Source: a virus. From it: a stretch of DNA of 64,000 nucleotides. The position numbers and the translations under genes were made by a program. The notes beneath the pieces were generated by a model. The model did not search any database. It had not been told where the DNA came from and worked only from the letters and a program-made list of their open reading frames with translations. Positions 30,694 through 57,270 of the stretch are shown here, piece by piece. The first letter of the stretch is position 1; each line of letters starts with the position of its first letter. The stretch lies in IMG/VR virus record IMGVR_UViG_3300042398_001385, positions 89,315-153,314 of that record, one strand, 5' to 3'.

Positions 30694-31494
30694 ATGAACA
30701 ATATTCTTACCATAGAGAACTATTTATTAGAGAATAGACAACCAATATTTTTTACAGAGGAACAAATCAAAGAATCCCTCGAATATCTAAACTCTGAGGA
30801 TCCAGCATTAATGGAAGCTTGGTATAATACTGTACTAGACTTTGCAGCTCTTATACCAGGAGTAGGATCAGTAGCAGAGGGTATAAATTTAGTATCTTAC
30901 GCAAAACAAGGAGAATATCTTCTAGCAGGTTTATGTGCTATAGGATTAATTCCAATTTTTGGTCAATATGTAGGAGCTGGGGGATCACTATTAGTTAAAG
31001 CACTAGGAAAAGGAGCTTCATTAGGATCGTCTATACTTAAACCTTTAATTAATGTTGTAGCTAAATTTTTTCCTAAAATAGTAGCATTTTTAAAAAGTTC
31101 TAAGTTTTTAACTAAGTTTTCTGGAATTGCACCTTTTGTTGGAAAAATCATTGGCTCTCTTAAAAATTTCATATTAAAAGGAGGATCTAAATTAACTGCA
31201 TTAGCTACTAATGCTTCTAAAATTAAAGCACTAAGATCAACTACAAGAGAAGTTAAAACTGGTTATAAAGCTTATAATTGGTTATTCGGTCCTAAAGATA
31301 CACCACAGGTTTCAACTACTCCAAGTATTGCTGGGTATTCAGGAAATTCTTCAGTTTCTCCTGAATATCAAATACCAGTTCCTAAAGATGCTTATATGGC
31401 TTATCAAGGAACTCCGCTTAAAAATATTAGACCATATACAGATATGGAAATATCTCAAGCAGAAATGGCTCAGGATTGGGAAAAATATCTATAA
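30694..31494 (+). CDS. Protein with pre-toxin-TG-like hydrophobic region and shared N-terminal motif
   Basis: LDFAALIPGVGSVAEGIN...GEYLLAGLCAIGLIPIFG; GATATATA at 30670. Confidence 0.6.
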   Translation: MNNILTIENYLLENRQPIFFTEEQIKESLEYLNSEDPALMEAWYNTVLDFAALIPGVGSVAEGINLVSYAKQGEYLLAGLCAIGLIPIFGQYVGAGGSLLVKALGKGASLGSSILKPLINVVAKFFPKIVAFLKSSKFLTKFSGIAPFVGKIIGSLKNFILKGGSKLTALATNASKIKALRSTTREVKTGYKAYNWLFGPKDTPQVSTTPSIAGYSGNSSVSPEYQIPVPKDAYMAYQGTPLKNIRPYTDMEISQAEMAQDWEKYL

Positions 31495-31501
31495 AAAATA
31501 C

Positions 31502-31528
31502 AAACCCAGGATCTCTCCTGGGTTTTTT
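31502..31528 (+). terminator. Intrinsic terminator between convergent genes
   Basis: AAACCCAGGA/TCCTGGGTTT stem plus U-tract. Confidence 0.85.
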
Positions 31529-31540
31529 GTGTAGCATGGT

Positions 31541-32338
31541 TTAGATCTTAGATCCGCAATTAGGACAGAATTTCCAAGTTTGTTTTTTCATTCTAGTTCC
31601 ACAGTCGGTGCAATAGTTTCTTATAGAAGAAGTCTCTAATGGTTTTTGAGATTCCGGTAATATTCTGTATTTAATAATTGTTTCTGCTATATCCATAAAA
31701 TTTGCAGAAACACTTATAAATTCTTGATTACTAGATTCGCCCATTTCAACCCTTCCAGTTTCTAAGCTATTGCTAGCATTTGATCCTTTAACTGAATCGT
31801 TAGTCATACTGGTAGTAGTAAATAAATTGTTTATTGTTGATCCACCTACCGATAAGCTTGAGTCCGAACAATAAGATCCCAAGACATCAGAGCTGTAATA
31901 AATCCCAGTAGATCCTCCAATATTAATTGTTGGATTGTAAAGAGATCCTTTAAAATAACCGCTTCCGGTATAATTAGTTAAAGGTAGTGATTCTTTATAG
32001 AAAGAAACCTCTAACATACCATTATCAATTATAGCTTTAAGAGCCTCATCAGATTTATCAACCTCATATGTTTCAAAAAGAAACTTATTATTAGTATCAA
32101 TAAATCTTTCTAGATAGATTCTTTCTCCTGGTCTTAAAATAATACCAGATTCGGAAATACTCTTACCGTTTAGATTGATCTTTGCAAGGACCCTTGCTGT
32201 TGTGGGATTGAATAATTCAATCTCGAAATTTTCTCCGTCTTTAAGGTAGACTGAATCACCATAGATCTTAGATCTATTTCTGTTTCTTGTGATGTGTGCA
32301 GTACAGCCCACATTCACGCTTGGCGTTGAATAATACAT
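31541..32338 (-). CDS. Hypothetical protein with C-terminal zinc ribbon
   Basis: CTDCG...CPNCG. Confidence 0.7.
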   Translation of the reverse strand: MYYSTPSVNVGCTAHITRNRNRSKIYGDSVYLKDGENFEIELFNPTTARVLAKINLNGKSISESGIILRPGERIYLERFIDTNNKFLFETYEVDKSDEALKAIIDNGMLEVSFYKESLPLTNYTGSGYFKGSLYNPTINIGGSTGIYYSSDVLGSYCSDSSLSVGGSTINNLFTTTSMTNDSVKGSNASNSLETGRVEMGESSNQEFISVSANFMDIAETIIKYRILPESQKPLETSSIRNYCTDCGTRMKKQTWKFCPNCGSKI

Positions 32339-32446
32339 AAAGATTATTTTATTTGGCCCCTTCCTTTGCGTCCATTTCTGAAAACTCTACGGTTCGTTGA
32401 CCGGGAAGTGACTAGAAACCTCTAGTTCTATTATTATATAACTCTA

Positions 32447-32728
32447 TTAATAAAAGTTCCCGAATTTAGCTACAGGAATATACTCTTTTACAAGCTCCGA
32501 ATGTATTAGTTGAGGAATTCTCTTGTATTCTTTATACCATTTATTACATACGTAAATCTCGCTACCTCTAGGATCTTCTATTATTTCTACCACATCATAT
32601 TCTGCTTCCTCGAAAGGACCTATAGGTTTTGTTATAACTTTTCCTATGACTGGCATTCTAGTTACATCCTCTCCACTGTACTCTATATTTTCTTTTATGT
32701 GGAATTCTTTTAATTTCTTTATTTTCAT
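32447..32728 (-). CDS. Hypothetical protein with shared N-terminal motif
   Basis: MKIKKLKEFHIKE. Confidence 0.65.
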   Translation of the reverse strand: MKIKKLKEFHIKENIEYSGEDVTRMPVIGKVITKPIGPFEEAEYDVVEIIEDPRGSEIYVCNKWYKEYKRIPQLIHSELVKEYIPVAKFGNFY

Positions 32729-33564
32729 TTCGTAGTATTTATTCCTAAGGGCACAGTGTTAGCATTAGACTGCTTAGATTTTTCTGTGTTTGCTAAATCT
32801 TGTTGTTGTATTTCTTGATTGAGATACGGGTCTTCTATTGAATCTAATAATCCTCTATAATATTCCAAAGGTTTTTTTTCTCTATAAGATTCAGGATCTG
32901 CAAATGCTCCGGAGAAATTACCCAATATATAATTATTGTTATCGTCTTGCTCTATATCGCTATTAAATACCTGGTCTATGTATTCATAGTAGTTTTTCTT
33001 TGATTTTCCCCCTGAAGGAAATTTCTTAAAAGTTTCCATGTTTTTGTCGACAACATATTCTGGAAATTCCCATTTCCAATCTTTTCTTATAGTCTCTGGA
33101 TAAAAAGTTAATGAAGCAAAATCTCCAGGAGACATTTCACCTTTTAAATTCATTTCAGAAAGCCAGGATTTATAAAATGCTCTAACTAGATCTAGCTGAT
33201 CAACATTTGACATTTGTATAACATCGTTAGGTGTATAATACTTACCGCTATCTGGATTTATAAATGTTTTTAATAAAGAAGGCATAAAAGATAATAAACC
33301 AACTTGTCCAGATACAGGATCCTTATACTTAGGATCGAATCTACTCTCGTGAAATATAGTATGTAGTAACCATTGTGGTTTTATTCCAATTTCCTCTGAT
33401 ATTTTTATTAATTTCTTAAGGAATGAATTTCTGTTTTCTTCTATAAGATTAGTATAAGGTAATTCAGTAACGGTTTCCATCTTATACGAAGATGGATCCA
33501 TTTTTTCTATCTTATTGCTTTCTAATAAATAAAAACTTTTAAAATCTTTTAGATGTCTTAGCAT
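32725..33564 (-). CDS. Lysozyme-fold / lytic transglycosylase-like protein with shared N-terminal motif
   Basis: IFHESRFDP (catalytic Glu), GLLSFMP, QLDLV; MLRHLKDFKSFYLLE. Confidence 0.7.
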   Translation of the reverse strand: MLRHLKDFKSFYLLESNKIEKMDPSSYKMETVTELPYTNLIEENRNSFLKKLIKISEEIGIKPQWLLHTIFHESRFDPKYKDPVSGQVGLLSFMPSLLKTFINPDSGKYYTPNDVIQMSNVDQLDLVRAFYKSWLSEMNLKGEMSPGDFASLTFYPETIRKDWKWEFPEYVVDKNMETFKKFPSGGKSKKNYYEYIDQVFNSDIEQDDNNNYILGNFSGAFADPESYREKKPLEYYRGLLDSIEDPYLNQEIQQQDLANTEKSKQSNANTVPLGINTTK

Positions 33565-33577
33565 CTAATATATATCC

Positions 33578-34363
33578 TCAGATTAAATTCTTTAGCATAG
33601 GTTTTTCAGAAGCCCATGCGTGTAGTGAAGTTATGTGCATTGTTAGCATTCCAGGCTTAACGTCTTTCCAATTTTCTGGGTCTATTTCTTTTAATCTTTC
33701 TATAAGCCAAAATACCTTTCTAGCACATAAATAGATATCATCCCTGAAGTGTCTAAAGAAGTCACATGATCTAATATAATAAACTACATGAACCCATTCT
33801 GCTCTTCTTATGAAATGATATCCTATTGTACAAGGAACTCTTTCTCCGTGAGCAGATCCAGTATCCTCTGGAAACCAAATAGGTAAAAATGCCTGTCTAG
33901 TAAAAGGCTCTCTAGCCATTAAAGAAACAACGTCATTGAAATCTCCATAGTCATATCTTATACCGGACATCTTACTATTAGGTATTTCTGATGCAAATTT
34001 AGGCCAGATTCTTTCTGGATATGTATGAGAGAATTTTTCATTACCGCCAAACTCTTCATTATTCTTTTGAGCATAAGGCCAACGAACATGGGAAGGAGGT
34101 GGATTTAGGGGTAAACCACTTACTCTTTCTTCAAAGTGTTCGTCAGCCCATGCAAAATTTGGTTTTATCTGATCCCCTATAACTTTTAAATCTGTATCCA
34201 TCTGACAAGAGAAGGATAAATTTAGTGTCTCTATCATAGCATATCTAGGATCATGTTTAATCTCTTTTCCTTGCCACCTTTCTGTGTGGACAATATAAGA
34301 ATAATCATACATTTGTTCAGCGGTCCATCTAATGACATCACTGAATCTCCCAAATTTTTTCAT
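33578..34363 (-). CDS. Thymidylate-synthase-fold enzyme, dCMP hydroxymethylase/methylase-like
   Basis: TRQA, PCT, RSCDFFRHFRDD (Asp at the TS Asn177 position), SLH. Confidence 0.72.
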   Translation of the reverse strand: MKKFGRFSDVIRWTAEQMYDYSYIVHTERWQGKEIKHDPRYAMIETLNLSFSCQMDTDLKVIGDQIKPNFAWADEHFEERVSGLPLNPPPSHVRWPYAQKNNEEFGGNEKFSHTYPERIWPKFASEIPNSKMSGIRYDYGDFNDVVSLMAREPFTRQAFLPIWFPEDTGSAHGERVPCTIGYHFIRRAEWVHVVYYIRSCDFFRHFRDDIYLCARKVFWLIERLKEIDPENWKDVKPGMLTMHITSLHAWASEKPMLKNLI

Positions 34364-34407
34364 TTATGCTATTTTCTTTATTATATGATAGTTTTTATAA
34401 AGGTTTC

Positions 34408-35475
34408 TTATTTATGAAATCTATCGAAAGAATTTTTAGATATTTTATTGAACCGTACTTTGCCAATAAATTCTCCTATTGTTAAACAGTCGGTATAACT
34501 CATTGCAGACCTTAGATAATCATTAAAATTTTCACACCATCCAGATAGTGTATATTCAACCTGTTGCATTTTAGATATTCCCTCGGATGTTTTAATCTCC
34601 CCCCTTCCTAAACTTTTTTGAGCCTCTTTAGTAGACATTCCTCTAAACTTTTTAAAGAATTTTCTTCCAGCTTCAAATTGTAAAAGTACATCTATTGAAT
34701 ATTGATCTACCTTATCTCCTGGCTCTGTCCAAGAATCGTATTTTTTATTTCCTTCGAATGTTTCACCGCAGCTTTCTAAAGCTTTATTAAAGATACTTCC
34801 TAGCATCACATAATCAGCTCCTAAACCTAATGCTTTTATAACGTCAGCATATTTTTTAAATCCTCCATCAGCAACGATTTTAGTTGAAAGATTTCTTTCT
34901 TTTTGTATTTTAGCAGTATCATGTATTAGAGAAGCCATTGGATATCCAACACCTGTTTGCACAGTGGTTAAACATCCAGCACCGTTACCTATACCCATTC
35001 TAACATAGTCTGCACCAGCATTTGATAAGGAAAGAAAGGTATGGGGGTTAGCACAATTACCAACCATGATAACAAGAGAAGGCCCGTATATTTTTTTTGA
35101 CTCCTGTACTAGTTCCTTAACTATTTCCATGTGTCCATTGGCTATGTCTATTAAGGCGTACATTCTTTTTCCTAAAGGAATACTTATATTATTTTCTATA
35201 AATACTCTCCTAAAGTCATCTAATCCGTATGAATACCATACTTTGTAATCAGTAGAAAAATAGTCTAATGGGTAATTTACAGGAAGTCTTGGTATTATTC
35301 CGTATATCTTATTATCATTGAATATTGTAAAATTGTTTTTGTCTATTACTGTATCCATAGGAGCAGTAAAAATCGGGAGCATTTGTTTTTCGTCGAAGGG
35401 ATCTACTTTTTTTCTAGATCTAATACTAGTATGGATTTCCGGCTCTATAAGAATATCATCAAAATCGAATAACAT
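34408..35475 (-). CDS. GMP reductase / IMP dehydrogenase family protein
   Basis: APMDTV, IDIANGH, GIGNGAGCLT, ADGG, VMLGS, FRGMST. Confidence 0.88.
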   Translation of the reverse strand: MLFDFDDILIEPEIHTSIRSRKKVDPFDEKQMLPIFTAPMDTVIDKNNFTIFNDNKIYGIIPRLPVNYPLDYFSTDYKVWYSYGLDDFRRVFIENNISIPLGKRMYALIDIANGHMEIVKELVQESKKIYGPSLVIMVGNCANPHTFLSLSNAGADYVRMGIGNGAGCLTTVQTGVGYPMASLIHDTAKIQKERNLSTKIVADGGFKKYADVIKALGLGADYVMLGSIFNKALESCGETFEGNKKYDSWTEPGDKVDQYSIDVLLQFEAGRKFFKKFRGMSTKEAQKSLGRGEIKTSEGISKMQQVEYTLSGWCENFNDYLRSAMSYTDCLTIGEFIGKVRFNKISKNSFDRFHK

Positions 35476-35524
35476 GTTTTTATTTTTTATAGAGTATAAT
35501 ACTATAAAAATTTCCTAATAAAAC

Positions 35525-35551
35525 AAAAAAGTCCGGATTAAACCGGACTTC
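35525..35551 (-). terminator. Intrinsic terminator
   Basis: AAGTCCGG/CCGGACTT stem plus U-tract. Confidence 0.85.
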
Positions 35552-35569
35552 CTAAAAACATATTTTTTA

Positions 35570-37317: not shown

Positions 37318-37362
37318 TTTTTGTGTATTTATTTTAGATATATATCTTACTAAAAGAAAAAA

Positions 37363-39024
37363 ATGATAAAGACATTCGACGGGTATTTTGATATCAATGA
37401 AGACGTTGCAACTGCTAAGGTGTGGTTATTAAAGAATGCAGCAAAAAATAGTAAAAGATCCCGATCTGGTGAAAAGGTAACATTTACACCAGAAGAGGAA
37501 AAGAAAATATTAAACGATCCCAGATATACAGAAATTAGAGACTATCTAATAAAAATAAATAAGCCGGGATTGGTATATCCATTTACTTATTTTATTATAG
37601 AAGAGAAACTACCCAGATTCAATCAGAAAGATTCGGAAGGAAATTATGATAAAAGAGCATTTACTGTAGAGAATCTATTGGATCTATATTTACAAGCAGC
37701 ATCAAATTTTTCTATATTTCCTTTACCTCTAGGAAGCATTAGTAATTATATAAAAGAGAAGGAACTAAAAAAATCTAATACCCCTGCTTACGAGGTTCTT
37801 TTTTCTGATCTGGAAAATATTCTTTCAATGAAAGGATTAAAAGGATTTGTAGATAAAATACAATCCAAAGACGTTAGAGATGAATTTAAAAGAGCTGTAC
37901 AATTAGGTGATAAGGATCCGGAGATGAAAGCATTATTAGACACCTTATATGATTCTTACAAAGCTTTTAAAAACTTGGCACCTAAGGTAGATATGCTAGG
38001 GGTTTCTCACACTCCCGAATCTGGAATACTTAAAGGATCTAAAAAATATTTAGATGAATACAATCTTCACAAATTTCAAAACCCACAAGAAAGATTTGCT
38101 ATGTTTGTGGATGATTGTAGAAAAAAAGTCGAGGGATGGGATACAGGTATAGAGGATTTTCTTATAGAGATAGAAAATATATCTCCTTCAATAAAGCTAT
38201 TATACAGTGATCCTTTTTCGAAAGTTGTTGTGACATCCTCAAGATCAGCAAAAGGAATGGAGGAAGTATGTAAGATCTCTAATGCAGATTTATGTATATT
38301 GAGCCCAGCAAACTTCTGGTCGATAACAGGGGGACATTTACAAATATCCATTAACATGATGGATCTTTCAAAAATGGATCTTAAATACCTAACTACATTT
38401 ACAGTTGCTCCTAGTGGAAGGATAAAAGAAGCTAGAACAAGGGTTAATATGTCAGCGCCACAGCCTTGTAAGCCAGGAGAAGACTATAGAGATTTTATAC
38501 CTAGATATTTACCAGAAATAAATTACGAGGAAGTAGTAAAATCAATAGAAAGAAATTTCTCTACTGAGTTAACAATTAAAAAATTAGTACAAATACTAGA
38601 ACAAAAATCTAATAATGAAAGAAGATCTTTTGTTTTATTATTAGGTAGTATGGAAGTACAAAGATCTATAGAAAATGGAGATTACACCAAAAAAGAGATG
38701 CTAGATTACAAGGAACTTATAATAGAAATAATTACAAGAGATAATAAAATAACATATGAAAGTATAGTTGATGATTTTAAATCTGCAGGTGGATTATTTA
38801 TGGCTATGTCCGATATAGATCTTTTTAAGTCTATTACACAAGGAGAATATAAAAAATCTGACGTATTAGATATAATAAATCTTACAAAAGAGGGAATAGA
38901 GCACCTTAAGGATTTTTTAGAACAACTGGAAACATCAGGAGATCCTAATGTTATTAGACTTGCTAAACATTTATTAGATACAAATCCTCAAGTAATTGAA
39001 TACGCAGAAAGAATACTACTATAA
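37363..39024 (+). CDS. Hypothetical protein, paralogue of 39040-40683
   Basis: Shared FTPEEEKKILN, KPGLVYPFTYF, VCKISNA. Confidence 0.75.
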   Translation: MIKTFDGYFDINEDVATAKVWLLKNAAKNSKRSRSGEKVTFTPEEEKKILNDPRYTEIRDYLIKINKPGLVYPFTYFIIEEKLPRFNQKDSEGNYDKRAFTVENLLDLYLQAASNFSIFPLPLGSISNYIKEKELKKSNTPAYEVLFSDLENILSMKGLKGFVDKIQSKDVRDEFKRAVQLGDKDPEMKALLDTLYDSYKAFKNLAPKVDMLGVSHTPESGILKGSKKYLDEYNLHKFQNPQERFAMFVDDCRKKVEGWDTGIEDFLIEIENISPSIKLLYSDPFSKVVVTSSRSAKGMEEVCKISNADLCILSPANFWSITGGHLQISINMMDLSKMDLKYLTTFTVAPSGRIKEARTRVNMSAPQPCKPGEDYRDFIPRYLPEINYEEVVKSIERNFSTELTIKKLVQILEQKSNNERRSFVLLLGSMEVQRSIENGDYTKKEMLDYKELIIEIITRDNKITYESIVDDFKSAGGLFMAMSDIDLFKSITQGEYKKSDVLDIINLTKEGIEHLKDFLEQLETSGDPNVIRLAKHLLDTNPQVIEYAERILL

Positions 39025-43192: not shown

Positions 43193-43257
43193 TATATATC
43201 TCTATTCCGATATTGTTTCACAAAATTAGAATAATTATTCCAGATAAAAAAATGATT
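43193..43257 (-). promoter_or_regulatory. Tandem promoters of tRNA operon 1 (AATCATTTTTT...TAATTTTG and GAAAC-N18-TATA)
   Basis: Both motifs recur with fixed spacing elsewhere in the window. Confidence 0.65.
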
Positions 43258-45062: not shown

Positions 45063-45602
45063 TTATCCTCCTACTCCTATAGCAGCATAGGTATCAGCTA
45101 TTTTTTTGATCCCGTCGAATAATCTTTTTTTCTGTCCTTCCCATCTAGAATCACCCGTATTAATAGCTTTAACTAATACTGGAGGAAGAGCATTAGTAAT
45201 GTTTTCCATCGTGATATCATATATTTTATTTTGTGAAGGGAACAATTTAATTTTTTTGTCTTTAGGATCAGGAGCTAAATATATGTCTATATTTTTTTCT
45301 GTCCCTCCTGCAGTTGTTTTTAATCTCACTGCAATACCGTTTCCTGTAGATTTTGGTGCTTCCATTTGACTAGCAATAGATGCTGATTCAACTAATATAG
45401 CTGGACTCCCCTTAATAGGAAAATAAAGAGGATTAAGCTTTCCAGCAGAGTCTTTAACTTCACTAACAAATAGTTTGCCGAGTAAATCTTTTTGTTGACT
45501 TATATAAGTTTCCAATTTCTTTTTAAACTCCTCTGGTGAAGCAGCCTCGTTTACATTAAGATTCTCGGATAGGAATAAATCGAATGTTAGGATATTTTTC
45601 AT
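45063..45602 (-). CDS. Hypothetical protein with shared N-terminal motif
   Basis: MKNILTFDLFLSENLNVNE; start corrected. Confidence 0.7.
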   Translation of the reverse strand: MKNILTFDLFLSENLNVNEAASPEEFKKKLETYISQQKDLLGKLFVSEVKDSAGKLNPLYFPIKGSPAILVESASIASQMEAPKSTGNGIAVRLKTTAGGTEKNIDIYLAPDPKDKKIKLFPSQNKIYDITMENITNALPPVLVKAINTGDSRWEGQKKRLFDGIKKIADTYAAIGVGG

Positions 45603-45613: not shown

Positions 45614-45892
45614 TTATAAATTCCAAGCTGGGTTAGCAACTATTAGAATGCCATTTTCTACTCTAGGAATAGGTTTAGTTGAATAAACATCATCATATTC
45701 TATTTGGTCTGGGTAGAATTTTTGTCCTTGGAACATGATGTAGTTTTCTTCATCTTTACCTCTGTGGCTCCATCCTTGTCCTCTCATAGAATCGTGAGCT
45801 GCATCATCAACTGTTGGTCTGCCAAAGAGAGCATCCCAGAATCCCTCGTTTACTTTTTCAGAGAATGATTCAAATTCAAATATATGTTTCAT
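45614..45892 (-). CDS. Hypothetical protein with shared N-terminal motif
   Basis: MKHIFEFESFSEKVNE; start corrected. Confidence 0.7.
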   Translation of the reverse strand: MKHIFEFESFSEKVNEGFWDALFGRPTVDDAAHDSMRGQGWSHRGKDEENYIMFQGQKFYPDQIEYDDVYSTKPIPRVENGILIVANPAWNL

Positions 45893-46262: not shown

Positions 46263-46282
46263 TTATTTTTTTATTTATATAT

Positions 46283-46702
46283 CTATAGTATTCCTTGAGA
46301 TCTTAGAAATTGGTAGATAGAATCAGAATTTTCCTCTGCCCACGTTATAGCTATTTCCTCTATATCTACACCTTTATATGTTAAATCTGTTCCGTGTATT
46401 TCTAGAGATAGGTGCATAGATTCGTGCATAATCAATAAAACGTCCTTATATCCATTACCTAACCGAGTAGCATTTAAAAATAAAAAGAGCTTGTTGTGAT
46501 CATCCGGATAAACATTACATAATCCTGCTATATAAGCATTAGTTGGATTATCGTAACAGTCTTTCTTATAAAGACCATGTAGTTCTTCTACACCAAAAAA
46601 ATTAAATATATCTTCGGACTTTTTCCCTATTATTAGAGTATATTCGGGATATTGCTTTGTAATTATTCCTGATATATCGAAATATGATAGTTTTTTAATC
46701 AT
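46283..46702 (-). CDS. HExxH metallopeptidase-like protein
   Basis: IMHESMH followed by EE. Confidence 0.55.
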   Translation of the reverse strand: MIKKLSYFDISGIITKQYPEYTLIIGKKSEDIFNFFGVEELHGLYKKDCYDNPTNAYIAGLCNVYPDDHNKLFLFLNATRLGNGYKDVLLIMHESMHLSLEIHGTDLTYKGVDIEEIAITWAEENSDSIYQFLRSQGIL

Positions 46703-46712: not shown

Positions 46713-48326
46713 TTATAATTCAAGCATGTCATAAACGTCCTTATATCCGTACTTTTTAGCCCCTCTATTCATTGCTATTAGATATGATCCAATGTTTAAA
46801 AGATCAGGAAATACTGGACTGTCTACTAATCTATCAGCTATCTTACCGGCAGCTTCTTCCCATTCTGGGCTTTCTTTCTTTTTAATAATAATATCCTGTA
46901 AAATTTCTAGTTCTTTACGGTTATCCTGGAGGAACTTTCCTATCCATGAAGTTTTAAACGCTTGCTTTATGTCGAACAGTAGGTACTTATTGAAATAGTA
47001 ATACTCACCTATGTATTCATTGCTCCTTTTAGCCATAACTTCTTTTTGTTCTGGAGTTCCGTAACTGTATCGTTCAGGTCTTGTGTATTCAGGGTGAGAC
47101 TCAAAATCTCTATCTAACTCAGATTCTAATTTATTCGGATCCCATGAATCCATACTTAACGCGTGTTCATCCGAATTATTCCAAATGAAACCTGCAGTCT
47201 CATCGAACTGTTTCATTGAAAATTTAGGAGTAGCTATGATCTTGCAAACCATCGTCATGTATCGTAAGTAGTTGCGCACAACTTCTTTGTCGAAAGGATC
47301 TTCTGTATGATCATTTGATAAATATTTCACACAAGCTTTCAAGTAATCTTTGCTGAATCCTCTATGAGCTTGGTACTCCTGTTCTTCTTTCTTGATGTCC
47401 AAGTTTTTGTACTGAGATCTTTTAATCTTCCCTAGACTCATAAAATCTTCCCAGTTCGTTTGTCCCTTCTCAAGATTGTACCATTTAGAACCCCAGTGTA
47501 GTCCACTTTTTCTGATGTCTTCCCTGTCTTGTAAATCTCTCATCTCACTGTCAAGATTATCATCGGTTGAGTAGTGAGAGCCCCCACTAAACGTAGTGTA
47601 GCCCATAGCTTCTATCGCATTGTTGGCATCTTGCAGCTCGTAATCGACAATATCTCCTTTTATCTTCAAGAAATAAATTTGGTTTCTGTTCTCAGCTGTT
47701 TTAGACACAAACTCCCTAACTTCTTCCTCTGCTTCAGGTAAGTAAAGAACTACTGTACCGTCAGACACTACCAAGCTCTTGTCATAGTAAGTGTCTATAG
47801 CAAAGAGACTGGCAGGTTTTCCGTTAGTCTTGATCATAGATTCTCCGGGCATCAAGTAGATGTACTTGTTACCTGTCCAGTTTCCACCTGAGTGAGAAGA
47901 AACTACGTGGTTCAACGTAAAGTGTTTTGTCCATCTGGTGGAATGAGCATCTATCATCCATTTTCTAAAAGTTTCAAAGTCCTTGTAGTGAGGTTCTTCC
48001 TTTATCCATGTATTTTCAGGGTCGTTGATGTCATCATTGTACTTCTTCTTGAGGTACTTCTCGAAAGAGTCATTGAAGCCTACGCTCTTTAGAGCTTTTC
48101 CTGTGTGAAGTATCATATCTTTACCACGAAGTGTGGGAAGCTCATCTGAGGATCTAATAAAAACTAAGTTCTTCCAATCAATAGCTACTATACCATCTTC
48201 CTTAAAATCCAGTTTGTCCACAGGTTCTCCAACTTTAGGTAATTCACTAATATTATTAATTATTTTAGAAGCTTTTGATAGGTATTCAAAAACAAACTCT
48301 TCGAATAATTTTATGTACTTTTTCAT
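46713..48326 (-). CDS. Hypothetical protein with shared N-terminal motif
   Basis: MKKYIKLFEEFVFE; GATATATA at 48333-48340. Confidence 0.75.
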   Translation of the reverse strand: MKKYIKLFEEFVFEYLSKASKIINNISELPKVGEPVDKLDFKEDGIVAIDWKNLVFIRSSDELPTLRGKDMILHTGKALKSVGFNDSFEKYLKKKYNDDINDPENTWIKEEPHYKDFETFRKWMIDAHSTRWTKHFTLNHVVSSHSGGNWTGNKYIYLMPGESMIKTNGKPASLFAIDTYYDKSLVVSDGTVVLYLPEAEEEVREFVSKTAENRNQIYFLKIKGDIVDYELQDANNAIEAMGYTTFSGGSHYSTDDNLDSEMRDLQDREDIRKSGLHWGSKWYNLEKGQTNWEDFMSLGKIKRSQYKNLDIKKEEQEYQAHRGFSKDYLKACVKYLSNDHTEDPFDKEVVRNYLRYMTMVCKIIATPKFSMKQFDETAGFIWNNSDEHALSMDSWDPNKLESELDRDFESHPEYTRPERYSYGTPEQKEVMAKRSNEYIGEYYYFNKYLLFDIKQAFKTSWIGKFLQDNRKELEILQDIIIKKKESPEWEEAAGKIADRLVDSPVFPDLLNIGSYLIAMNRGAKKYGYKDVYDMLEL

Positions 48327-48364: not shown

Positions 48365-48937
48365 ATGAAGTATATTAAACTATTTGAGGGATTTGATACA
48401 AATAATAATCCCACATCGATAACATTAGAGATACTTCCTGGATTCTACAATAGAATGAAAGAATCTAATGGAACTGTAACAGATGGAAGTTATGGATATC
48501 CTGATCCTAAAAATATACAGTTGTTCGATGGGAGTACTGATTTTAAAGAGAATTATAATCTTTGTTACGTAGCTAGATTAAATTCCAAATCTGAATATAA
48601 CTACGGAGGATCTGTATCTATTTGGATTAGTTATAGAAGAGACATTGCAGAGATTTCAATGTACGAGTCTATATTTGACTTTGATACTAATAGAAAATTA
48701 ATGGATTATGCTTCAGGTTTACCTAACACATCCCCAATTTATAAGGGATTATGGAAGGATACAAATCAGGATAACATAGAATATAACAGGAGATTAATGC
48801 CAAAGGATACACTATCAAGAGTTAGAAGAGAAGAATGGAACTTCTTTAATCCTACTGGATATTGCAAATTTGAAGATGGCGTAGAACCAGGTAAAACCGA
48901 TCACCGAGGATACTTCAGAATTAAAGAGGTTAAGTAA
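48365..48937 (+). CDS. Hypothetical protein with shared N-terminal motif
   Basis: MKYIKLFEGF; GATATATA at 48352-48359. Confidence 0.75.
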   Translation: MKYIKLFEGFDTNNNPTSITLEILPGFYNRMKESNGTVTDGSYGYPDPKNIQLFDGSTDFKENYNLCYVARLNSKSEYNYGGSVSIWISYRRDIAEISMYESIFDFDTNRKLMDYASGLPNTSPIYKGLWKDTNQDNIEYNRRLMPKDTLSRVRREEWNFFNPTGYCKFEDGVEPGKTDHRGYFRIKEVK

Positions 48938-49881: not shown

Positions 49882-49946
49882 TATATATCGTTCCTTTTGT
49901 TTTGTTTCACAAATATAGATCTTTTATATTGATAAAAAAAATGATT
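49882..49946 (-). promoter_or_regulatory. Tandem promoters of tRNA operon 3 (AATCATTTTTT...TATATTTG and GAAAC-N18-TATA)
   Basis: Same layout as upstream of leader 1. Confidence 0.65.
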
Positions 49947-51422: not shown

Positions 51423-51431
51423 TGGTATTTT

Positions 51432-51722: not shown

Positions 51723-52141
51723 TATCCCTCAATTAAAACCTTCTTTAGTTCATAAGCACCTTCAGATCCAGGTACCTCGTCATAATAACCAACTATAGAA
51801 TATTCTCTTCCATCAGAGCTTGAATCTGGTATCATTTCTATGGAGCTAACCATATTTCCTCCAACATATTCAGGATCTACTGAATGACCTATAGCCATTG
51901 TTGTTTCCTCTCCGTTAGCGTTAGTAAAGTTTACTATATAATCTCCCTCCTCATCATCTTGAGTTGGTACAAATTTAGTAGTTTCAGTTTCGAAGTTAGC
52001 AGGATCCATGTCCATTTGCTCTCCGCCCATATCCATGTCCATTTGCTCTCCGCCCATATCCATGTCCATTTGCTCTCCGCCCATATCCATATTTTTAACA
52101 GGTCTACCGACGAAACTTTCGTATATTTTAAGGTGCTTCAT
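51722..52141 (-). CDS. Acidic protein with shared N-terminal motif and three MDMGGEQMD repeats
   Basis: MKHLKIYESF; 27-bp tandem repeat at about 52005-52090. Confidence 0.7.
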   Translation of the reverse strand: MKHLKIYESFVGRPVKNMDMGGEQMDMDMGGEQMDMDMGGEQMDMDPANFETETTKFVPTQDDEEGDYIVNFTNANGEETTMAIGHSVDPEYVGGNMVSSIEMIPDSSSDGREYSIVGYYDEVPGSEGAYELKKVLIEG

Positions 52142-52161
52142 TTTTTTATATTATATATCTC

Positions 52162-52308
52162 TTATCTTCCTTGTGACTTATAAGGTTTTTTATAATGCTT
52201 AGAATTCTTACTAACACTAGATTTACATTTAGAATGTATACCTGGTCTTCTTTTTCTTGCACTTTTTATGTGATTTCTAGATGATTCTGAGGATTTAGCC
52301 TTTGCCAT
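52162..52308 (-). CDS. 48-aa highly basic peptide (MAKAKSSESS...RPGIHSK...YKSQGR), absent from the ORF track
   Basis: ATG overlaps the upstream stop codon; K/R/S-rich. Confidence 0.7.
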   Translation of the reverse strand: MAKAKSSESSRNHIKSARKRRPGIHSKCKSSVSKNSKHYKKPYKSQGR

Positions 52309-52490
52309 TATTTAGATTTTATTTTGTCTTTAGTTCCTAATGTAGATTCAAATATTACTCTTTGAATAAGATCATAGAATTTCTTTTTTCTTATAGGATC
52401 GTCTGATATAGAACAGTTAGCAACAAAAATTTTGATGTCTTTTTTTGTTTTATCTGATAGTATATCTAGTATTTTAATATCTTCTTCCAT
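52308..52490 (-). CDS. Hypothetical protein
   Basis: ORF track. Confidence 0.55.
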   Translation of the reverse strand: MEEDIKILDILSDKTKKDIKIFVANCSISDDPIRKKKFYDLIQRVIFESTLGTKDKIKSK

Positions 52491-52494
52491 ATTT

Positions 52495-52752
52495 TCAATT
52501 TCTCATATTTCCTATGTAACCTTTTTGGTTAAACATATTTTGGTTAACCCTAAGAGTTTTTCCTCTTTCGGCGGATCTTAATAATAATGTATGCTCTTCA
52601 ACTTTTTCTACTATATAAGGAACTCCTAAATATGTAACTTTATCCCCCACTTTAAGATTTAGGAGAGGATAAGGATCACCATATTTTTTTATTGGCTCTT
52701 CGCCTGGTGAATCTATAACAGTATAGTTTTCGAAAGTCTTTATGTTTTTCAT
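52495..52752 (-). CDS. Small SH3-like protein with shared N-terminal motif
   Basis: MKNIKTFENY; LKVGDKV. Confidence 0.65.
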   Translation of the reverse strand: MKNIKTFENYTVIDSPGEEPIKKYGDPYPLLNLKVGDKVTYLGVPYIVEKVEEHTLLLRSAERGKTLRVNQNMFNQKGYIGNMRN

Positions 52753-52785
52753 ATTAGTATTTATCTATTTTCTACATAAAAACAC

Positions 52786-52812
52786 AAAAAAAATCCCTAT
52801 TGCTAGGGATTT
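52786..52812 (-). terminator. Intrinsic terminator after the Ro60 gene
   Basis: AAATCCCTA/TAGGGATTT stem plus U-tract. Confidence 0.8.
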
Positions 52813-52834
52813 AATAAGAAATTTAAGGAATATC

Positions 52835-54466
52835 TTATTTTTTGGACTCTATAGAATCCCAAGTATCTATAATAGCATTGGCAAATATTGGTTCTTTACC
52901 AGTCCATCCTGCTAATATTGCACCTCTATAAAGATTTTCAGGAAGTACAGAATTGTTGTAACCTGCAACTTGTATACAGAAGACATTAACCTTAGGATTA
53001 ACAGTTCTTCTATATTCTTGTACCATTGCTAGAACGTCGACGTTTACTGATCCCTTATCTCCGTGTCCATAAGGAGAAACCCCAACTGTGTCTCCGTGTC
53101 CATATAAACCTCCATGTCCTGCCTGCATATCTGAGTATATGAAAACAGTATCATAATGTGTCTTATTTTTTATAGCATCGTCCCAGAATATCCATATTCC
53201 ATTTTCTGTTCCACCTCCTTGTTCTCTACCTCTTTTAGATGTCTCTGCTAATTGAGTGAGTATACCATTTCTTTTAGAAACTCCTTTTAGTGATAATTCA
53301 TCTCCAAATACTCCTACAATACCTTCGTCGGACTGTAAAGCAGTTGTTAATGAAGAAAGGTTAGCTATTTCTGCTACTGTTACAGTTCCATATTCGCTAT
53401 TAAAAGATCTCCATGCTGATCCTGAGTTGTCAGATAGACAAGCAGTTTTACCTTTTAATTTAGGCATATTAGATACTGAAATATCTAAGCACTCCTCTAA
53501 AGTATCCAGTACAAGCTGTTTGTGGTGTATATCAGAACCTTGAATTGCTTTGAAAGCAGACCAATATCTGAATGGAAATTGTTTTCCGTTTTCAACCCCA
53601 GATTTTAGTTGAGCTAATATTCTTGCTGTGATTGTACGATCATCTACTTCTGTAAAAATACCTCTAAGGTTTCTCAACAACGCCATATGAGGAATAAGAA
53701 TGGTATCTGTTATTTCCTTCCATGTTTTTCCTTCAGATCTTAGAGTTTCCCAAGTTTTTTCGCTCTCTTTAACTTTTAAAGTACCAGTAGACATTAACTC
53801 ATTTATGTCCTCTCCTTTTGCGTGAGATATACGTACAAGATCTATTAGTCTTTTTCCTTTGTACTTATTTAATTGGTATCTGCTAAATTCTCCAAGTCTT
53901 TCTGCCCAAGTTCTTTTAACCATAGACGAAAGACCTTTTTTATCTCCATTCTTATACATGTAGTATTCGAATTGATTAGTCAAATCATCTGGTCGTAAAG
54001 AAATAGCTTTACCTATACTCTTCATGTACCCCGGATTACTTTCATTAAACTCGACTCTTGAAGGGTGTTGTGAAGCTTTTATAAAGATCACAGCTGGATT
54101 AAGTCTCATAAAGAAATTAGTTCTTAGATCTAGGGCTAAATCCAATGTTCCTTTAAAATCGTAACTTAAAGCAGATTCTATAGCATTTTCAAAAATCTCA
54201 GTAGCAGTTACATCTGATTGATACATTGATGGAAATATAGAATATTTTGACAATGTCTGTAGATTGCTAGGAGCCTTTAATCCATCTCTATAATACTGAG
54301 GCTCTCCAAATATAGACGAAGCCGCTACGATTCTTAAAGTGTCTAGAGGATTTATCTCATAGGATGTCCCTCCCATAAAATTTTCCACTGCAAAAGCACC
54401 GTAAATTGAATTTTGTGCAATTTGCATTGCCATTTTTTTGTCTGCGTAATCACTTAACTTTGACAT
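52835..54466 (-). CDS. rsr: Ro60/TROVE-domain RNA-binding protein with vWA domain
   Basis: YQLNKYK, TWETLRS, MALLRNLR, QFPFRYWSA; DNSGS MIDAS motif; YSDMQ. Confidence 0.92.
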   Translation of the reverse strand: MSKLSDYADKKMAMQIAQNSIYGAFAVENFMGGTSYEINPLDTLRIVAASSIFGEPQYYRDGLKAPSNLQTLSKYSIFPSMYQSDVTATEIFENAIESALSYDFKGTLDLALDLRTNFFMRLNPAVIFIKASQHPSRVEFNESNPGYMKSIGKAISLRPDDLTNQFEYYMYKNGDKKGLSSMVKRTWAERLGEFSRYQLNKYKGKRLIDLVRISHAKGEDINELMSTGTLKVKESEKTWETLRSEGKTWKEITDTILIPHMALLRNLRGIFTEVDDRTITARILAQLKSGVENGKQFPFRYWSAFKAIQGSDIHHKQLVLDTLEECLDISVSNMPKLKGKTACLSDNSGSAWRSFNSEYGTVTVAEIANLSSLTTALQSDEGIVGVFGDELSLKGVSKRNGILTQLAETSKRGREQGGGTENGIWIFWDDAIKNKTHYDTVFIYSDMQAGHGGLYGHGDTVGVSPYGHGDKGSVNVDVLAMVQEYRRTVNPKVNVFCIQVAGYNNSVLPENLYRGAILAGWTGKEPIFANAIIDTWDSIESKK

Positions 54467-54492
54467 ATATTTGTTTTTAAATTTTACTAAAT

Positions 54493-54527
54493 AAAAAAAG
54501 GGTTTAGTCGCTAGCGTCTAAACCCCT
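54493..54527 (-). terminator. Intrinsic terminator between the ncRNA cluster and the Ro60 gene
   Basis: GGGTTTAG/CTAAACCC stem plus U-tract. Confidence 0.8.
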
Positions 54528-54534
54528 TAGTGTC

Positions 54535-54609
54535 GTTCTGAGAAAATCGATTTCGAGGATTTTTCGAGTCTAACAATATATGAAGTATCTCAAAATCCCG
54601 CTTCAGAAC
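54535..54609 (-). ncRNA. Candidate Y-like RNA A
   Basis: Stems GTTCTGA/TCAGAAC and GATTTTGAG/CTCGAAATC; GAAGCGG, TACTTC, TTCTC motifs. Confidence 0.7.
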
Positions 54610-54614
54610 AATTT

Positions 54615-54695
54615 TAAATCCGAGAATATTAGTGAAAGGCGTTTTTTCTTTTTTCCTAAATATTGAAGTAACCATTCACACCGCTTCGGAGTTTA
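54615..54695 (-). ncRNA. Candidate Y-like RNA B
   Basis: Stems TCCGA/TCGGA and GTGAATGG/CCTTTCAC; same motifs. Confidence 0.7.
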
Positions 54696-54702
54696 TATAA
54701 TT

Positions 54703-54933
54703 TTTTTCTTGAGAAATCTCTAAAGAGTGGTCCCTCCTTATGGGAGGTAATCATTCCCTCATTTCTAGTCTGGTGAATTAAACCGAGCTACTGATTTTTC
54801 TCTTATGTCCTTTCGTAAATAAGAGCGCCTCATCTATAGCAGTACTGAGACCTGTGTAGATTAGAACCGGAGAACTAATCTTTTTCTGCGTTTATAATTT
54901 TTGAAGTAACCCTTTAAACCGCTTCAAGAAAAA
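54703..54933 (-). ncRNA. Candidate Y-like RNA C with large multi-hairpin insert
   Basis: Stems TTTTTCTTGA/TCAAGAAAAA and TTTAAAGGG/CTCTTTAGA; same motifs. Confidence 0.7.
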
Positions 54934-54939
54934 TATGTA

Positions 54940-54986
54940 TGTTAAAGAACGTTTTATTAATATATTGCAAATTTAGATAAAGTTTC
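54940..54986 (-). promoter_or_regulatory. GAAAC-N17-TATA promoter plus boxA (GTTCTTTAACA) for the ncRNA cluster
   Basis: Matches to the recurrent promoter motif and to the boxA consensus. Confidence 0.65.
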
Positions 54987-55305
54987 AATTTAAAACCTGA
55001 TGATCCTCAAGAAATTTTTTAATTTGTTCATCATTTTTTACTCCAGAGAATCTTGCTATCTCTTTATCTCCCTCTATAAGTACACAAGTTGGAATATTTC
55101 TTATGTTGAATTTCTTTGCAGATTCTTCCGCCTCACTAACATCAGCTTTTACTATTTTTATATTTTCTGATAGTTCAATTTCTAATTTTTCTAGTGACGG
55201 CTTAATTATTTTACAAGGCCCACACCAATCAGCGGAAAAAAGAACTAAAGTTTTTTCACCACTTACAATTGCTTCATTTAACTGTTCATCGTTAATAATT
55301 TTCAT
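54985..55305 (-). CDS. trxA: Thioredoxin
   Basis: WCGPC active site; IPT cis-Pro motif. Confidence 0.93.
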   Translation of the reverse strand: MKIINDEQLNEAIVSGEKTLVLFSADWCGPCKIIKPSLEKLEIELSENIKIVKADVSEAEESAKKFNIRNIPTCVLIEGDKEIARFSGVKNDEQIKKFLEDHQVLN

Positions 55306-55350
55306 GTGATTTGATTATTTGATATGGTATATAACCATCCGAACACAAAG

Positions 55351-55373
55351 AATCCCGCCTTAAGACGGGACTT
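55351..55373. terminator. Hairpin, probable terminator
   Basis: TCCCG/CGGGA stem. Confidence 0.5.
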
Positions 55374-55382
55374 TGCTTGTTC

Positions 55383-55733
55383 TTAAATTTCTGAAGAAAT
55401 AGGACCTTCTTCCTTATTTTCTTCAATTTTTTCTTCGATTGGCTCTTCTAAAATGCCATCCTCGTCGTTTTCTTTTTTATCAGATAACTCTGGTCCCTCT
55501 TTTATTTCTGATGCGGGGGATACATTTAATTTTTTTATAAAATCCGGTGAAATTAAAAGTTCTCCAGTTTCTCTTATTTCTGGCGTTCCTGCACTGTTAA
55601 TCTCTGCAGATTTTTGTTGCTCTTGTATCATTTCCAAGAGCTTCTTCATTTTCGTTTTAGATAAACCTTTAGGCTTTGCTTTATACTTTACTGGTTTACC
55701 GTTTTTCTTTCTTACTCGACTTTTAGTAGCCAT
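55383..55733 (-). CDS. Hypothetical protein, basic N-terminus and acidic C-terminus
   Basis: ORF; GAAAC-N18-TATA at 55754-55780. Confidence 0.65.
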   Translation of the reverse strand: MATKSRVRKKNGKPVKYKAKPKGLSKTKMKKLLEMIQEQQKSAEINSAGTPEIRETGELLISPDFIKKLNVSPASEIKEGPELSDKKENDEDGILEEPIEEKIEENKEEGPISSEI

Positions 55734-55788
55734 ATTTTTTGCTTATTTATTTTTATAGAACCCTATTTGTTTATAGTTTCCATTTGCT

Positions 55789-56391
55789 TTATATAATAAT
55801 ATTCATCTCGTCCCAATGCTCATTCCAATTGGATTTAGCTTCACATCTGACTATCATATCTTCCTTTTTAAAGTGTATATAATCACTTTCGAAGACATCA
55901 TTAACCAATATATTAGGTACGTTTATTTTTCGTGCTATAAAGTCCCCGTATTTCTCCATATCAGAAGGTTTTTCACCCTCAGTTCTAACAAAAACCCCAG
56001 AAATGCTTTGTTTATATCCAGATACAATATCTTCTATGTATATTCTATTTTCTGTCTTTACAAGATCTAATCTTGGATTTGGACATTCTTTTAATTCCCT
56101 ATCTTCTAAGAACCACCAAAGATTAGTTTTTTCTTCCCTTATATAGACACCTATTTTTTCTGAGATATGTCTAAGAAAAAATGCCTGGACATTTTTGGGG
56201 TTATAGAATGTTTTTATAAAATCTACGTTTTTAGAAACCCTCTTATACTTTCCTTCATATAAAAATTCAGGATCCCCTGAATCATTTAATAATATACCAT
56301 CAACATCAAAAAGGCAATAATTATTTGGTAGATTATTCCTGTGACTCTCAGAGAAAGGATTTGTTATACCGTAATTTCTTTGTTTAGACAT
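55789..56391 (-). CDS. Hypothetical protein
   Basis: ORF; GAAAC-N18-TATA at 56398-56424. Confidence 0.65.
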   Translation of the reverse strand: MSKQRNYGITNPFSESHRNNLPNNYCLFDVDGILLNDSGDPEFLYEGKYKRVSKNVDFIKTFYNPKNVQAFFLRHISEKIGVYIREEKTNLWWFLEDRELKECPNPRLDLVKTENRIYIEDIVSGYKQSISGVFVRTEGEKPSDMEKYGDFIARKINVPNILVNDVFESDYIHFKKEDMIVRCEAKSNWNEHWDEMNIII

Positions 56392-56430
56392 ATATTTTAT
56401 ATAGAAAAAACATAAGTTTGTTTCTAAATG

Positions 56431-57012
56431 CTAAAGTATCTGTTTTTTCAATAAATCAAAGAAATCAGTAGGATTTAGTCTTTCTATATCTTTTTTCATC
56501 ATTCTATAGACCATATTTCCTGCTCTTTCATTTCCTCTTAGCATATTTTCCTCTCTGTCCATCTCTCTTGTAAATCCTATCTGTCTCATAGATTCGATAG
56601 CATAATCATTAGCATCTATTTCTAATCTAGAGTAAGCTTCTAAAAATCCTTGAAGATCATTATCTAATACTGTATTATAATATCCATCCATAAATATTCC
56701 TTCCCTGTATTGATCACAATGTCTAGATTCATGTAGAGATAAAAACATTTTAATGTGCGGAGGCATTCTTAAATTTTCATTTATACACACAGTATCATCA
56801 CCTAAAAAAACACCTGCTATAGGCTCAGGTGATCCAAAACTAAAAAGGTGTATCTTAATATTTGCTCTGTTATTACTCCACCATTCAGATATAGATGGTA
56901 TCATAGCCGGATATATTCCTATTCTATTACAGAATTCATCTATAGTTATACCAGGACTGCTTATATTTTCGGATTCGAAAAGTGCACTAAAGTATTTTAA
57001 ATTCTTCATCAA
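56431..57012 (-). CDS. HExxH metallopeptidase-like protein with shared N-terminal motif
   Basis: LHESRHCDQ...EIDAN; MKNLKYFSALFE. Confidence 0.6.
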   Translation of the reverse strand: MMKNLKYFSALFESENISSPGITIDEFCNRIGIYPAMIPSISEWWSNNRANIKIHLFSFGSPEPIAGVFLGDDTVCINENLRMPPHIKMFLSLHESRHCDQYREGIFMDGYYNTVLDNDLQGFLEAYSRLEIDANDYAIESMRQIGFTREMDREENMLRGNERAGNMVYRMMKKDIERLNPTDFFDLLKKQIL

Positions 57013-57270
57013 TTAATAATTATTTGGTAATATACCTGCTTCATATTGGCTTTTTCCATTTTTAAGAAGATACTCTAATTGTATCCACTGCTTTTTAGAA
57101 AGATACATCTTATTCTTAGCCTGTTCCCATAGGCTTAGAAAAAATTTATTATATCTATATTTTTCCGGAAGCCAATCCCAGAGCTTCTGATAGTATTGTA
57201 TTTCTGAATCAGTGAAATCTTTTCTTTCTGGAAGATTAAAGTTCTCGTATAATCTAATATGTTTCATCAT
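57013..57270 (-). CDS. Hypothetical protein with shared N-terminal motif
   Basis: MKHIRLYENF. Confidence 0.65.
   Translation of the reverse strand: MMKHIRLYENFNLPERKDFTDSEIQYYQKLWDWLPEKYRYNKFFLSLWEQAKNKMYLSKKQWIQLEYLLKNGKSQYEAGILPNNY

Follow-up and report, generated by a model that had tools for sequence, protein, structure and literature searches.

Introduction

A short leader brings a handful of proteins into the head of bacteriophage T4, and these proteins serve as anti-defence weapons that are delivered with the DNA; one of them, Alt, is a packaged and injected ADP-ribosyltransferase. The internal proteins of the T-even phages constitute a diverse set with only the capsid-targeting sequence (CTS) in common, which loads them into the scaffolding core and is also able to bring foreign proteins into the head (PMC3012670; PMC5694885). 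The carriers in T4 are IPI, IPII, IPIII, and Alt, from which the prohead protease gp21 removes the CTS (Mullaney & Black 1996, cited in PMC5694885; Rao & Black review, PMC3012670). In the giant phages phiKZ, 201phi2-1, and SPN3US, the propeptides of the head and ejection proteins are mostly 80-130 residues long, do not share a consensus and are cut at (S/A/G)-x-E; a role in directing these proteins to the prohead has been suggested for them (PMC5694885). Here we analysed the final 64 kb (G000:C1:89315-153314, referred to as the window; all 64,000 nucleotides of it are meant) of a 153,314-bp IMG/VR record of an uncultured T4-like jumbo phage in which an N-terminal peptide of 10-13 residues, called the tag, recurs at the start of many proteins. 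A sequence-only reading of this DNA had proposed that about 18 otherwise unrelated proteins share such a CTS-like start.

The tag proved to be real, N-terminal, virus-specific, modular, and selected as a peptide. We consider it probably a portable leader of approximately 13 residues, similar in kind to the T4 CTS, cut by the head protease and expanded to a large set of cargos.

Results

A recurrent tag at the N-termini of unrelated proteins

The complete 153,314-bp record was scanned in all six frames with the strict pattern M{1,2}-K-x{1,2}-[ILV]-x-x-[FY]-[EDN]-x-[FY]. Ten matches were found, all ten at the first Met of open reading frames (ORFs) of 85-537 aa and all within positions 37018-57270 of the window. 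The chance level established in codon-shuffled genomes was 0.17 matches on average, with a maximum of 2. The consensus in this phage may be written as M-K-(H/N/Y)-(I/L)-K-x-(F/Y)-E-x-(F/Y), and [ILV]-x-E falls within the first 16 residues in 16 of the 17 window leaders.

A tag profile was trained on 225 tagged ORFs from other contigs (those among the matches listed in the IMG/VR search described below) and applied to 169 N-termini of the record. Eleven of them exceeded 8 bits and 17 exceeded 3.4 bits, whereas 6 of the 1624 internal windows used as a control reached 3.4 bits. By this tally there are approximately 10-12 clear and 5-7 weaker cases, with about 15-17 located in the window and three upstream of it (G000:C1 43193-46047). 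The proposed number of about 18 stands on a lenient count. Four of the leaders (MLRHLKDF..., MNNILTIENY..., MKNLKYFSALFE, and MKIKKLKEF) are borderline or do not pass the profile. Every N-terminus quoted in the earlier reading was present at the start of an ORF. The bodies behind the tag are indeed otherwise unrelated: all-against-all BLASTP of the tagged proteins detected a single pair, the neighbouring 553-aa and 547-aa proteins, with 45% identity.

Head genes and the putative cleavage motif

The record (G+C of 32.5%, completeness by CheckV of about 53%) encodes a T4-type core: terminase, sheath, two tube paralogues, tail-fibre-like proteins, portal homologues, protease, and capsid protein. 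The large terminase is closest to those of uncultured huge phages, Sphingomonas phage PAU, Tenacibaculum phage PTm1, and Flavobacterium phage MaF61 (29-39% identity). A head maturation protease of the S77/phrog_207 type lies inside a 695-aa ORF (G000:C1 56304-58391; PF03420, 39.9 bits; phrog_207, 1e-38), and directly 3' of this ORF there is a gp23-type major capsid gene (594-aa ORF, phrog_138).

The N-terminal region of the capsid protein could be aligned with the propeptide of T4 gp23 by BLASTP. The conserved end of the capsid propeptide (marked by ^, as are the other known or putative cleavage positions below) reads H-S-L-N-E^S-A-G in this phage and HKLYE^D, AMFE^N, HSINE^N, and HQLNE^N in relatives, and is followed by a variable stretch rich in Gly and Ala. 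The capsid maturation site is predicted, from conservation, at this L-x-E. The L-(N/Y/F)-E of the predicted site recurs twice in the tag, as K-L-F-E at residues 5-8 and as (I/L/V)-N-E at residues 11-13. SSLNE^G, VELNE^G, and RINE^E occur close to the start of other head-module proteins.

Tagged genes were also found inside the head modules of relatives. In three contigs (G007, G008, and G012) the portal gene (phrog_213) is followed by the gene of a tagged 116-134-aa protein and then by the protease and capsid genes; the tagged proteins start with MKIIKTFEEF, MRYVKLFEQFIKE, and MKKLIKTFEQFIFE, and their genes occupy the position of T4 gp67/gp68. A tagged 192-aa protein is encoded between the protease and capsid genes of G016, and in G001 tagged genes lie on both sides of the homologue of the 328-aa head-module gene of the phage studied here. 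In the latter phage, the genes downstream of the capsid gene start with degenerate tags (MQNRIFKIHEFVLE and MKYFSNKFSSLLE).

An alternative is that the cargos are not delivered effectors. The leader might be an element of the prohead core or scaffold assembly and a protease substrate, with the cargos acting in the prohead (core filling, protease regulation, pressure or charge balance) and then being degraded or expelled like T4 gp22, gp67, and gp68. The small acidic tagged proteins at the gp67/68 position of the relatives would suit this role, and so would the numerous acidic or low-complexity cargos, e.g., the 139-aa protein with 31 D+E vs. 8 K+R. In the same direction points the recurrence of (L/I/V)NE sites past the tag, enriched 3-fold at residues 14-30 of the 225 listed ORFs. 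However, the enzyme-like bodies (lysozyme/transglycosylase-like, ADP-ribosyltransferase (ART)-like, Acb1/2H, and GNAT) are sensible only if they survive and act. Moreover, the bodies are folded domains in which the internal cleavage motifs are not in excess (0.2% past residue 30). A role confined to the core is regarded as unlikely.

The upstream motif and selection on the peptide

The octamer RATATATA (GATATATA or AATATATA) was found not more than 80 nt upstream of 33 of the 161 genes, with 6 expected. The genes behind it comprise portal, tube, sheath, the protease-capsid operon, tail-fibre-like genes, other head-module genes, and tagged genes; none of the recognisable replication genes of the record is preceded by it. 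Within 80 nt upstream it is present in 9 of the 17 tagged genes vs. 1 of their 14 untagged neighbours. GATATATA itself precedes 8 of the 17 at a distance of 4-25 nt, so the claim that most of the tagged genes follow the motif holds directly for about half of them, whereas the others are mostly downstream members of the same strand-wise gene runs. ATATATA was also the commonest 7-mer upstream of the tagged genes in other contigs (66/221 among the matches listed). The tag is associated with the upstream motif of the structural genes, and RATATATA itself may be considered a putative late promoter.

Shine-Dalgarno-like sequences were rare and barely enriched (13/161 genes vs. 8.8 expected), and the Bacteroidetes promoter motif TAnnTTTG showed no enrichment upstream of the genes (7 vs. 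6.8 expected). At six sites (window 32725-33564, 46713-48326, 48365-48937, 4266-5522, 22810-23253, and 57322-58077) the RATATATA-type motif ends 4-7 nt before the ATG, and therefore the transcripts may be leaderless or nearly so. The window carries 26 tRNA genes in three clusters. Since GATATATA heads two of these clusters as well (window 43193-43200 and 49882-49889, minus strand), the phage tRNAs may be made late, alongside the virion genes.

For Phe, Glu, Ile, and Gln, the synonymous codons are used in the same proportions (TTT/TTC, GAA/GAG, ATH codons, and CAA/CAG) in the tag and in the gene bodies, and GC3 equals 0.232 in both; codon use differs somewhat for His, Tyr, and Leu only. The replacements seen within the tag are conservative at the amino acid level (F/Y, I/L/V, and E/D/N). 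As synonymous codons are chosen as in the bodies and the replacements are conservative, selection acts on the peptide.

These data have a bearing on the explanation that conservation resides in the nucleic acid, the tag being a mobile promoter-plus-start cassette (for strong, perhaps leaderless translation, or serving as a recombination handle) and the peptide its by-product. The close spacing of 4-7 nt between the promoter motif and several ATGs, with some mRNAs possibly leaderless, and the AT-rich codons of the tag would agree with such a cassette. It is nevertheless very improbable, in view of synonymous sites as free as those of the bodies, the conservative substitutions, the promoter distance varying from 4 to 25 nt, and the many tagged genes that have no promoter of their own.

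A single short leader over many unrelated bodies is, moreover, a hallmark of leader-guided modification, and the tag might be recognised by a different partner: a modifying enzyme, as for ribosomally synthesised and post-translationally modified peptides (RiPPs), a chaperone, or an adaptor of regulated proteolysis. The radical-SAM family PF04055 was not found in the 153 kb of this record, which is about 53% complete, whereas the control was positive in 14 of 14 genomes. The protease motif in the leader, the tagged head-module genes, and the promoter motif of the structural genes are not predicted by a modification leader either, and we give this explanation little credence.

Distribution of the tag

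A back-translated pattern searched against IMG/VR matched at least 120 stretches. Among the matches listed there were 225 distinct tagged ORFs with a median length of 157 aa (range 69-561), and they yielded a wider-clade consensus of MKHIKLFEQF(I/V/L)NE followed by A, E, K, or S. Residues 11-13, which lie outside the search pattern, conform to [ILV][NS]E in 43% of the 225 listed ORFs vs. 0.2% in the bodies. Rescanning of 49 tag-bearing IMG/VR contigs as a whole revealed 1-41 copies in each of the 49, with the reversed-pattern control giving approximately none. The CheckV completeness of these contigs implies genomes of roughly 200-480 kb. A homologue of the capsid protein of this phage is encoded in 21 of the 49 (31-94% identity), and the S77 protease was detected in 13 of the 20 tag-bearing contigs tested.

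The published huge phages LR756504, LR756500, and LR745206 have 19-22 copies of the tag each. BLASTN of the consensus tag against 50,697 phage records returned, besides chance matches, uncultured huge phages only, and the cluster look-ups of homologues gave no cultured source. Bacterial and archaeal genomes totalling 596 Gb yielded 78 tag matches, half of them in ORFs shorter than 60 aa and three with the Glu extension; the few convincing cellular matches, on contigs of metagenome-assembled genomes, could be binned phage DNA.

Five tag-bearing contigs showed no clear T4-type head module. Searches of them for the capsid of nucleocytoplasmic large DNA viruses, S77, phrog_207, Gp23, and sheath were negative or fragmentary, which makes them uninformative. 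In two tag-rich contigs with 24-26% G+C, G002 (348 kb) and G010 (183 kb), the matches to Gp23 were only fragmentary and lay in frames of 62-230 aa, for which stop-codon recoding or strong divergence may be responsible. Several G002 tags are identical to those of the huge phage LR756504.

Among the papers covered, full-text literature searches found none describing this leader, and those made with tag sequences gave noise alone. A full-text search for capsid targeting in combination with Bacteroidetes, jumbo, or metagenome returned no paper containing the phrase 'capsid targeting', and the comparative paper on jumbo phages PMC7824862 does not mention such a leader.

Modularity and the cargo bodies

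Pfam searches with the 150 longest of the listed tagged ORFs left most of them without a match, and the remainder fell into unrelated families: 2H phosphoesterase/Acb1 (4 ORFs), GNAT (3), DUF5824 (3), cytidylyltransferase (2), and, further, AAA_28, cREC_REC, DUF2201 metallopeptidase, NT5C, amine oxidase, and others. Pfam and PHROGs searches with all tagged proteins of the phage studied here gave nothing beyond a sub-threshold SLT match and a chance match to ORC3_N. The SLT match belongs to the doubtfully tagged 279-aa protein (E 0.0063; 16.5 bits, under the cut-off of 21.3), whose residues 29-162 resemble PHROG families of peptidases, baseplate-hub proteins, and transglycosylases (8e-10 to 1e-3). 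The transglycosylase body named in the sequence-only reading is matched in PHROG but remains sub-threshold in Pfam. The membrane domain comes down to one hydrophobic stretch, and the HExxH body to a single HESRH that no family supports.

The 537-aa protein has 23 metagenomic homologues, most of which keep MKYIKLFENFLFE. Five close homologues (P0020-P0024) start with MNLQENIxRIKxxMGLLxE instead, so the leader of this body has been exchanged. This sequence, probably an alternative tag family, likewise ends in L-x-E. The idea of a portable tag is therefore upheld by the unrelated bodies, by the different Pfam families in relatives, and by the leader differing on close homologues.

The same observations bear on whether the tagged proteins could form one fast-evolving paralogue family of which the N-terminus is merely the best conserved part. 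There is one paralogous pair in this phage, and true paralogue arrays sharing more than the tag occur in some relatives, e.g., G010. On the other hand, the proteins vary in length between 69 and 561 aa, different Pfam families stand behind the same tag, the same body stands behind two different leaders, and apart from the one pair no pairwise similarity reaches E<1e-3. Common descent of the whole set is in consequence extremely improbable.

In the AlphaFold2 model of the 537-aa protein (mean pLDDT of 78.6), residues 2-15 form a detached helix (pLDDT <50) ahead of the fold. With hydrophobic residues 4, 7, 10, and 11 making up one face, the predicted helix might be an amphipathic element that guides the proteins to a different place in the infected cell, such as the membrane or a compartment of replication or assembly, or that determines how stable they are. 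Its net charge is near zero, however, unlike that of typical membrane-targeting helices, and such a role would not account for the conserved Glu or for the agreement of (L/I/V)-x-E with the predicted maturation site of the capsid protein. No tubulin- or nucleus-type system turned up, though none was searched for. Another destination is in our view quite improbable.

In structural comparisons, the N-domain of the 537-aa protein came closest to four entries of DarT and to Tpt1 (Z 4.3-6.4, with 104-144 residues aligned). The best in VIA-align was 7yk3_C (Z 6.4, rmsd 3.9, 144 residues aligned), with 7omv (5.8), 7yw4 (5.2), and 8baq (5.0) behind it, and DarT/Tpt1 were again at the top when the N-domain was searched alone (Z 5.5, 5.4, and 5.1). 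Foldseek against PDB gave no significant match for either the whole protein or the domain (E > 0.1). A language-model search of the ESM Atlas pointed to DarT/PARP/Arr clusters with scores of up to 0.86, which are leads only. An ADP-ribosyltransferase fold of this domain is a weak lead, and the case for the tag does not rest on it.

Tagged genes of the window

The tagged genes and the associated promoter-like motifs are compiled in Table 1. The 139-aa protein is extremely acidic and has three tandem MDMGGEQ repeats directly after the tag.

Table 1. Tagged genes and the promoter-like motif in the window (^, putative cleavage position)
Feature	Position in the window	Strand	N-terminus or tag	Remarks
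Tagged gene, 537 aa	46713..48326	-	MKKYIKLFEEFVFE	Top tag score, 26.5 bits; GATATATA 6 nt upstream
Tagged gene, 190 aa	48365..48937	+	MKYIKLFEGF	GATATATA 5 nt upstream; divergent from the 537-aa gene
Tagged gene, 118 aa	45906..46262	-	MKHLKIFEDF	GATATATA 13 nt upstream; heads the run with genes 45614..45892 and 45063..45602
Tagged gene, 92 aa counted from an internal ATG	45614..45892	-	MKHIFEFESFSEKVNE^G	
Tagged gene, 179 aa	45063..45602	-	MKNILTFDLFLSE^NLNVNE^A	
Tagged gene, 163 aa	49960..50451	-	MKHINLFEEY	GATATATA 25 nt upstream
Tagged gene, 139 aa	51722..52141	-	MKHLKIYESF	GATATATA 10 nt upstream
Tagged gene, 85 aa	52495..52752	-	MKNIKTFENY	
Tagged gene, 84 aa	57013..57267	-	MKHIRLYENF	AATATATA upstream
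Tagged gene, 482 aa	35570..37018	-	MKNISKFDHFLSE^A	Second in the run opened by GATATATA at 37339
Tagged gene, 553 aa	37363..39024	+	MIKTFDGYFDINE^D	Shortened tag; GATATATA 18 nt upstream
Tagged gene, 547 aa	39040..40683	+	MNRNLKSFNQFSPVNE^S	45%-identical paralogue of the 553-aa gene 37363..39024
Weaker tag, 309 aa	50493..51422	-	MNKILDFNDFVLFE^S	3.5 bits
Weaker tag, 266 aa	30694..31494	+	MNNILTIENYLLE^N	4.3 bits; GATATATA 16 nt upstream; single hydrophobic segment near residue 75
Doubtful tag, 279 aa	32725..33564	-	MLRHLKDFKSFYLLE^S	Does not pass the profile, -2.7 bits; GATATATA 4 nt upstream; lysozyme/transglycosylase-like body
Doubtful tag, 192 aa	56431..57009	-	MKNLKYFSALFE^SE	One HESRH at residue 93; without family match
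Doubtful tag, 93 aa	32447..32728	-	MKIKKLKEFHIKE	
GATATATA promoter-like motif, example	46276..46283	-		Other starts: 30670(+), 33569(-), 37337(+), 37339(-), 48333(-), 48352(+), 50477(-), 52152(-)

Genes of recognisable cytoplasmic type that stand among the tagged ones (TROVE/Ro60, HNH endonuclease, HAD phosphatase, and thioredoxin) are untagged. The TROVE (Ro60-type) domain (Pfam E 2.7e-8) is part of a 543-aa protein encoded at window 52835-54466 (minus strand). Two further gene pairs of the record were noted. The tail-tube paralogues (phrog_45/phrog_32623), 59% identical, are encoded in tandem at window 12173-12751 and 12763-13335 (minus strand). Upstream of the window (G000:C1:82171-85437) there are adjacent genes for paralogues of 547 and 539 aa, 48% identical, that start with MAGF... 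like the portal of relatives (phrog_213); if both are portals, the portal gene of this phage would be duplicated.

Discussion

Because the tagged genes share the motif of the structural genes, the tag contains the (L/I/V)-x-E of the predicted capsid site, an S77 protease is encoded, and tagged genes occur in head modules, we read the tag as a CTS-like leader. The likeness to the T4 CTS claimed in the sequence-only reading is thus backed by four lines of sequence evidence; it does not extend to the T4 sequence itself, as the pattern has no match in T4. Under this reading, the tagged genes would be transcribed late together with the structural genes. The amphipathic leader helix would bind the assembling prohead core, by which the protein would become enclosed. 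The gp21-type (S77) protease would then cut after Glu, at L-F-E (residues 6-8) and/or at (I/L/V)-(N/S)-E (residues 11-13), and the mature cargo would remain in the head and probably reach the host cell along with the DNA. We infer core binding, cleavage, presence in the virion, and injection.

Several observations weigh against a packaging leader of this kind. The known T4 gp23 site (FLTE^A) aligns about 20 residues past the predicted capsid site, and many of this phage's own tags are devoid of the (I/L/V)NE extension and rely on L-F-E. The cultured phages T4, PAU, PTm1, and MaF61 have no tag match, and no cultured carrier of the tag was found. S77 was unmatched in five tag-bearing contigs, which may be due to recoding or divergence; at least two of the five show fragmentary Gp23 matches in short frames. 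Some tagged ORFs of relatives resemble ordinary cytoplasmic enzymes (5'-nucleotidase, cytidylyltransferase, AAA_28, and amine oxidase), unexpected as capsid cargo. Finally, many of the cargos are acidic, whereas T4 IPII and IPIII are basic.

A broader proposition is put forward more tentatively, with the chances slightly below even: the 13-residue label may mark all proteins that are packaged, and probably injected, by a large clade of uncultivated T4-like jumbo/huge phages, amounting to 15-40 proteins per genome and including ART-like, Acb1/2H-like, GNAT, and wall-degrading enzymes. If this is true, the injected counter-defence arsenal of such phages could be listed from metagenomes alone. 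Each uncultured jumbo phage would pack 15-40 different proteins, and candidate first-strike effectors lacking any other annotation would be flagged by their sequence. The tag would also provide a second natural protein-packaging label, of another sequence, for capsid engineering and the loading of foreign proteins.

Comparison with known packaging systems

The giant phages phiKZ, 201phi2-1, and SPN3US resemble the phage described here in being large, and in them many internal head proteins are processed after Glu by a T4-related protease. Their propeptides differ from the tag, which is short, nearly invariant, and characterised by (L/I/V)-x-E. As to the individual cargos, the T4 Alt protein finds a possible counterpart in the 537-aa protein, whose N-domain has its best structural matches among the proteins with an ADP-ribosyltransferase fold. 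The two do not share sequence similarity, however, and the fold match is weak (Z 4.3-6.4, Foldseek E > 0.1).

The closest comparison is with the T4 CTS. The T4 ipII and ipIII proteins start with MKTYQEFIAE^A, so the sequence used for comparison in the earlier reading was correct, and ipI starts with MKTFKEF...ITE^A; their genes lie beside a tRNA cluster. Both the CTS and the tag are N-terminal leaders of 10-20 residues that start with MK, are borne by otherwise unrelated proteins, contain the arrangement aromatic-x-x-aromatic-aliphatic-x-Glu, and end in (L/I)-x-Glu. Both phages encode a gp21-type protease and have the leader genes in variable regions beside tRNA clusters. The tag differs from the CTS in being longer and of another sequence (MKHIKLFEQFINE vs. 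MKTYQEFIAE), and in its number, with 15-40 tagged genes per genome vs. a handful in T4. It is also present on head-module genes, at least one alternative leader occurs on homologous bodies, and its targeting role is read here from sequence. Altogether, the comparison suggests that the tag is an analogue or a distant variant of the T4 CTS rather than the same tag.

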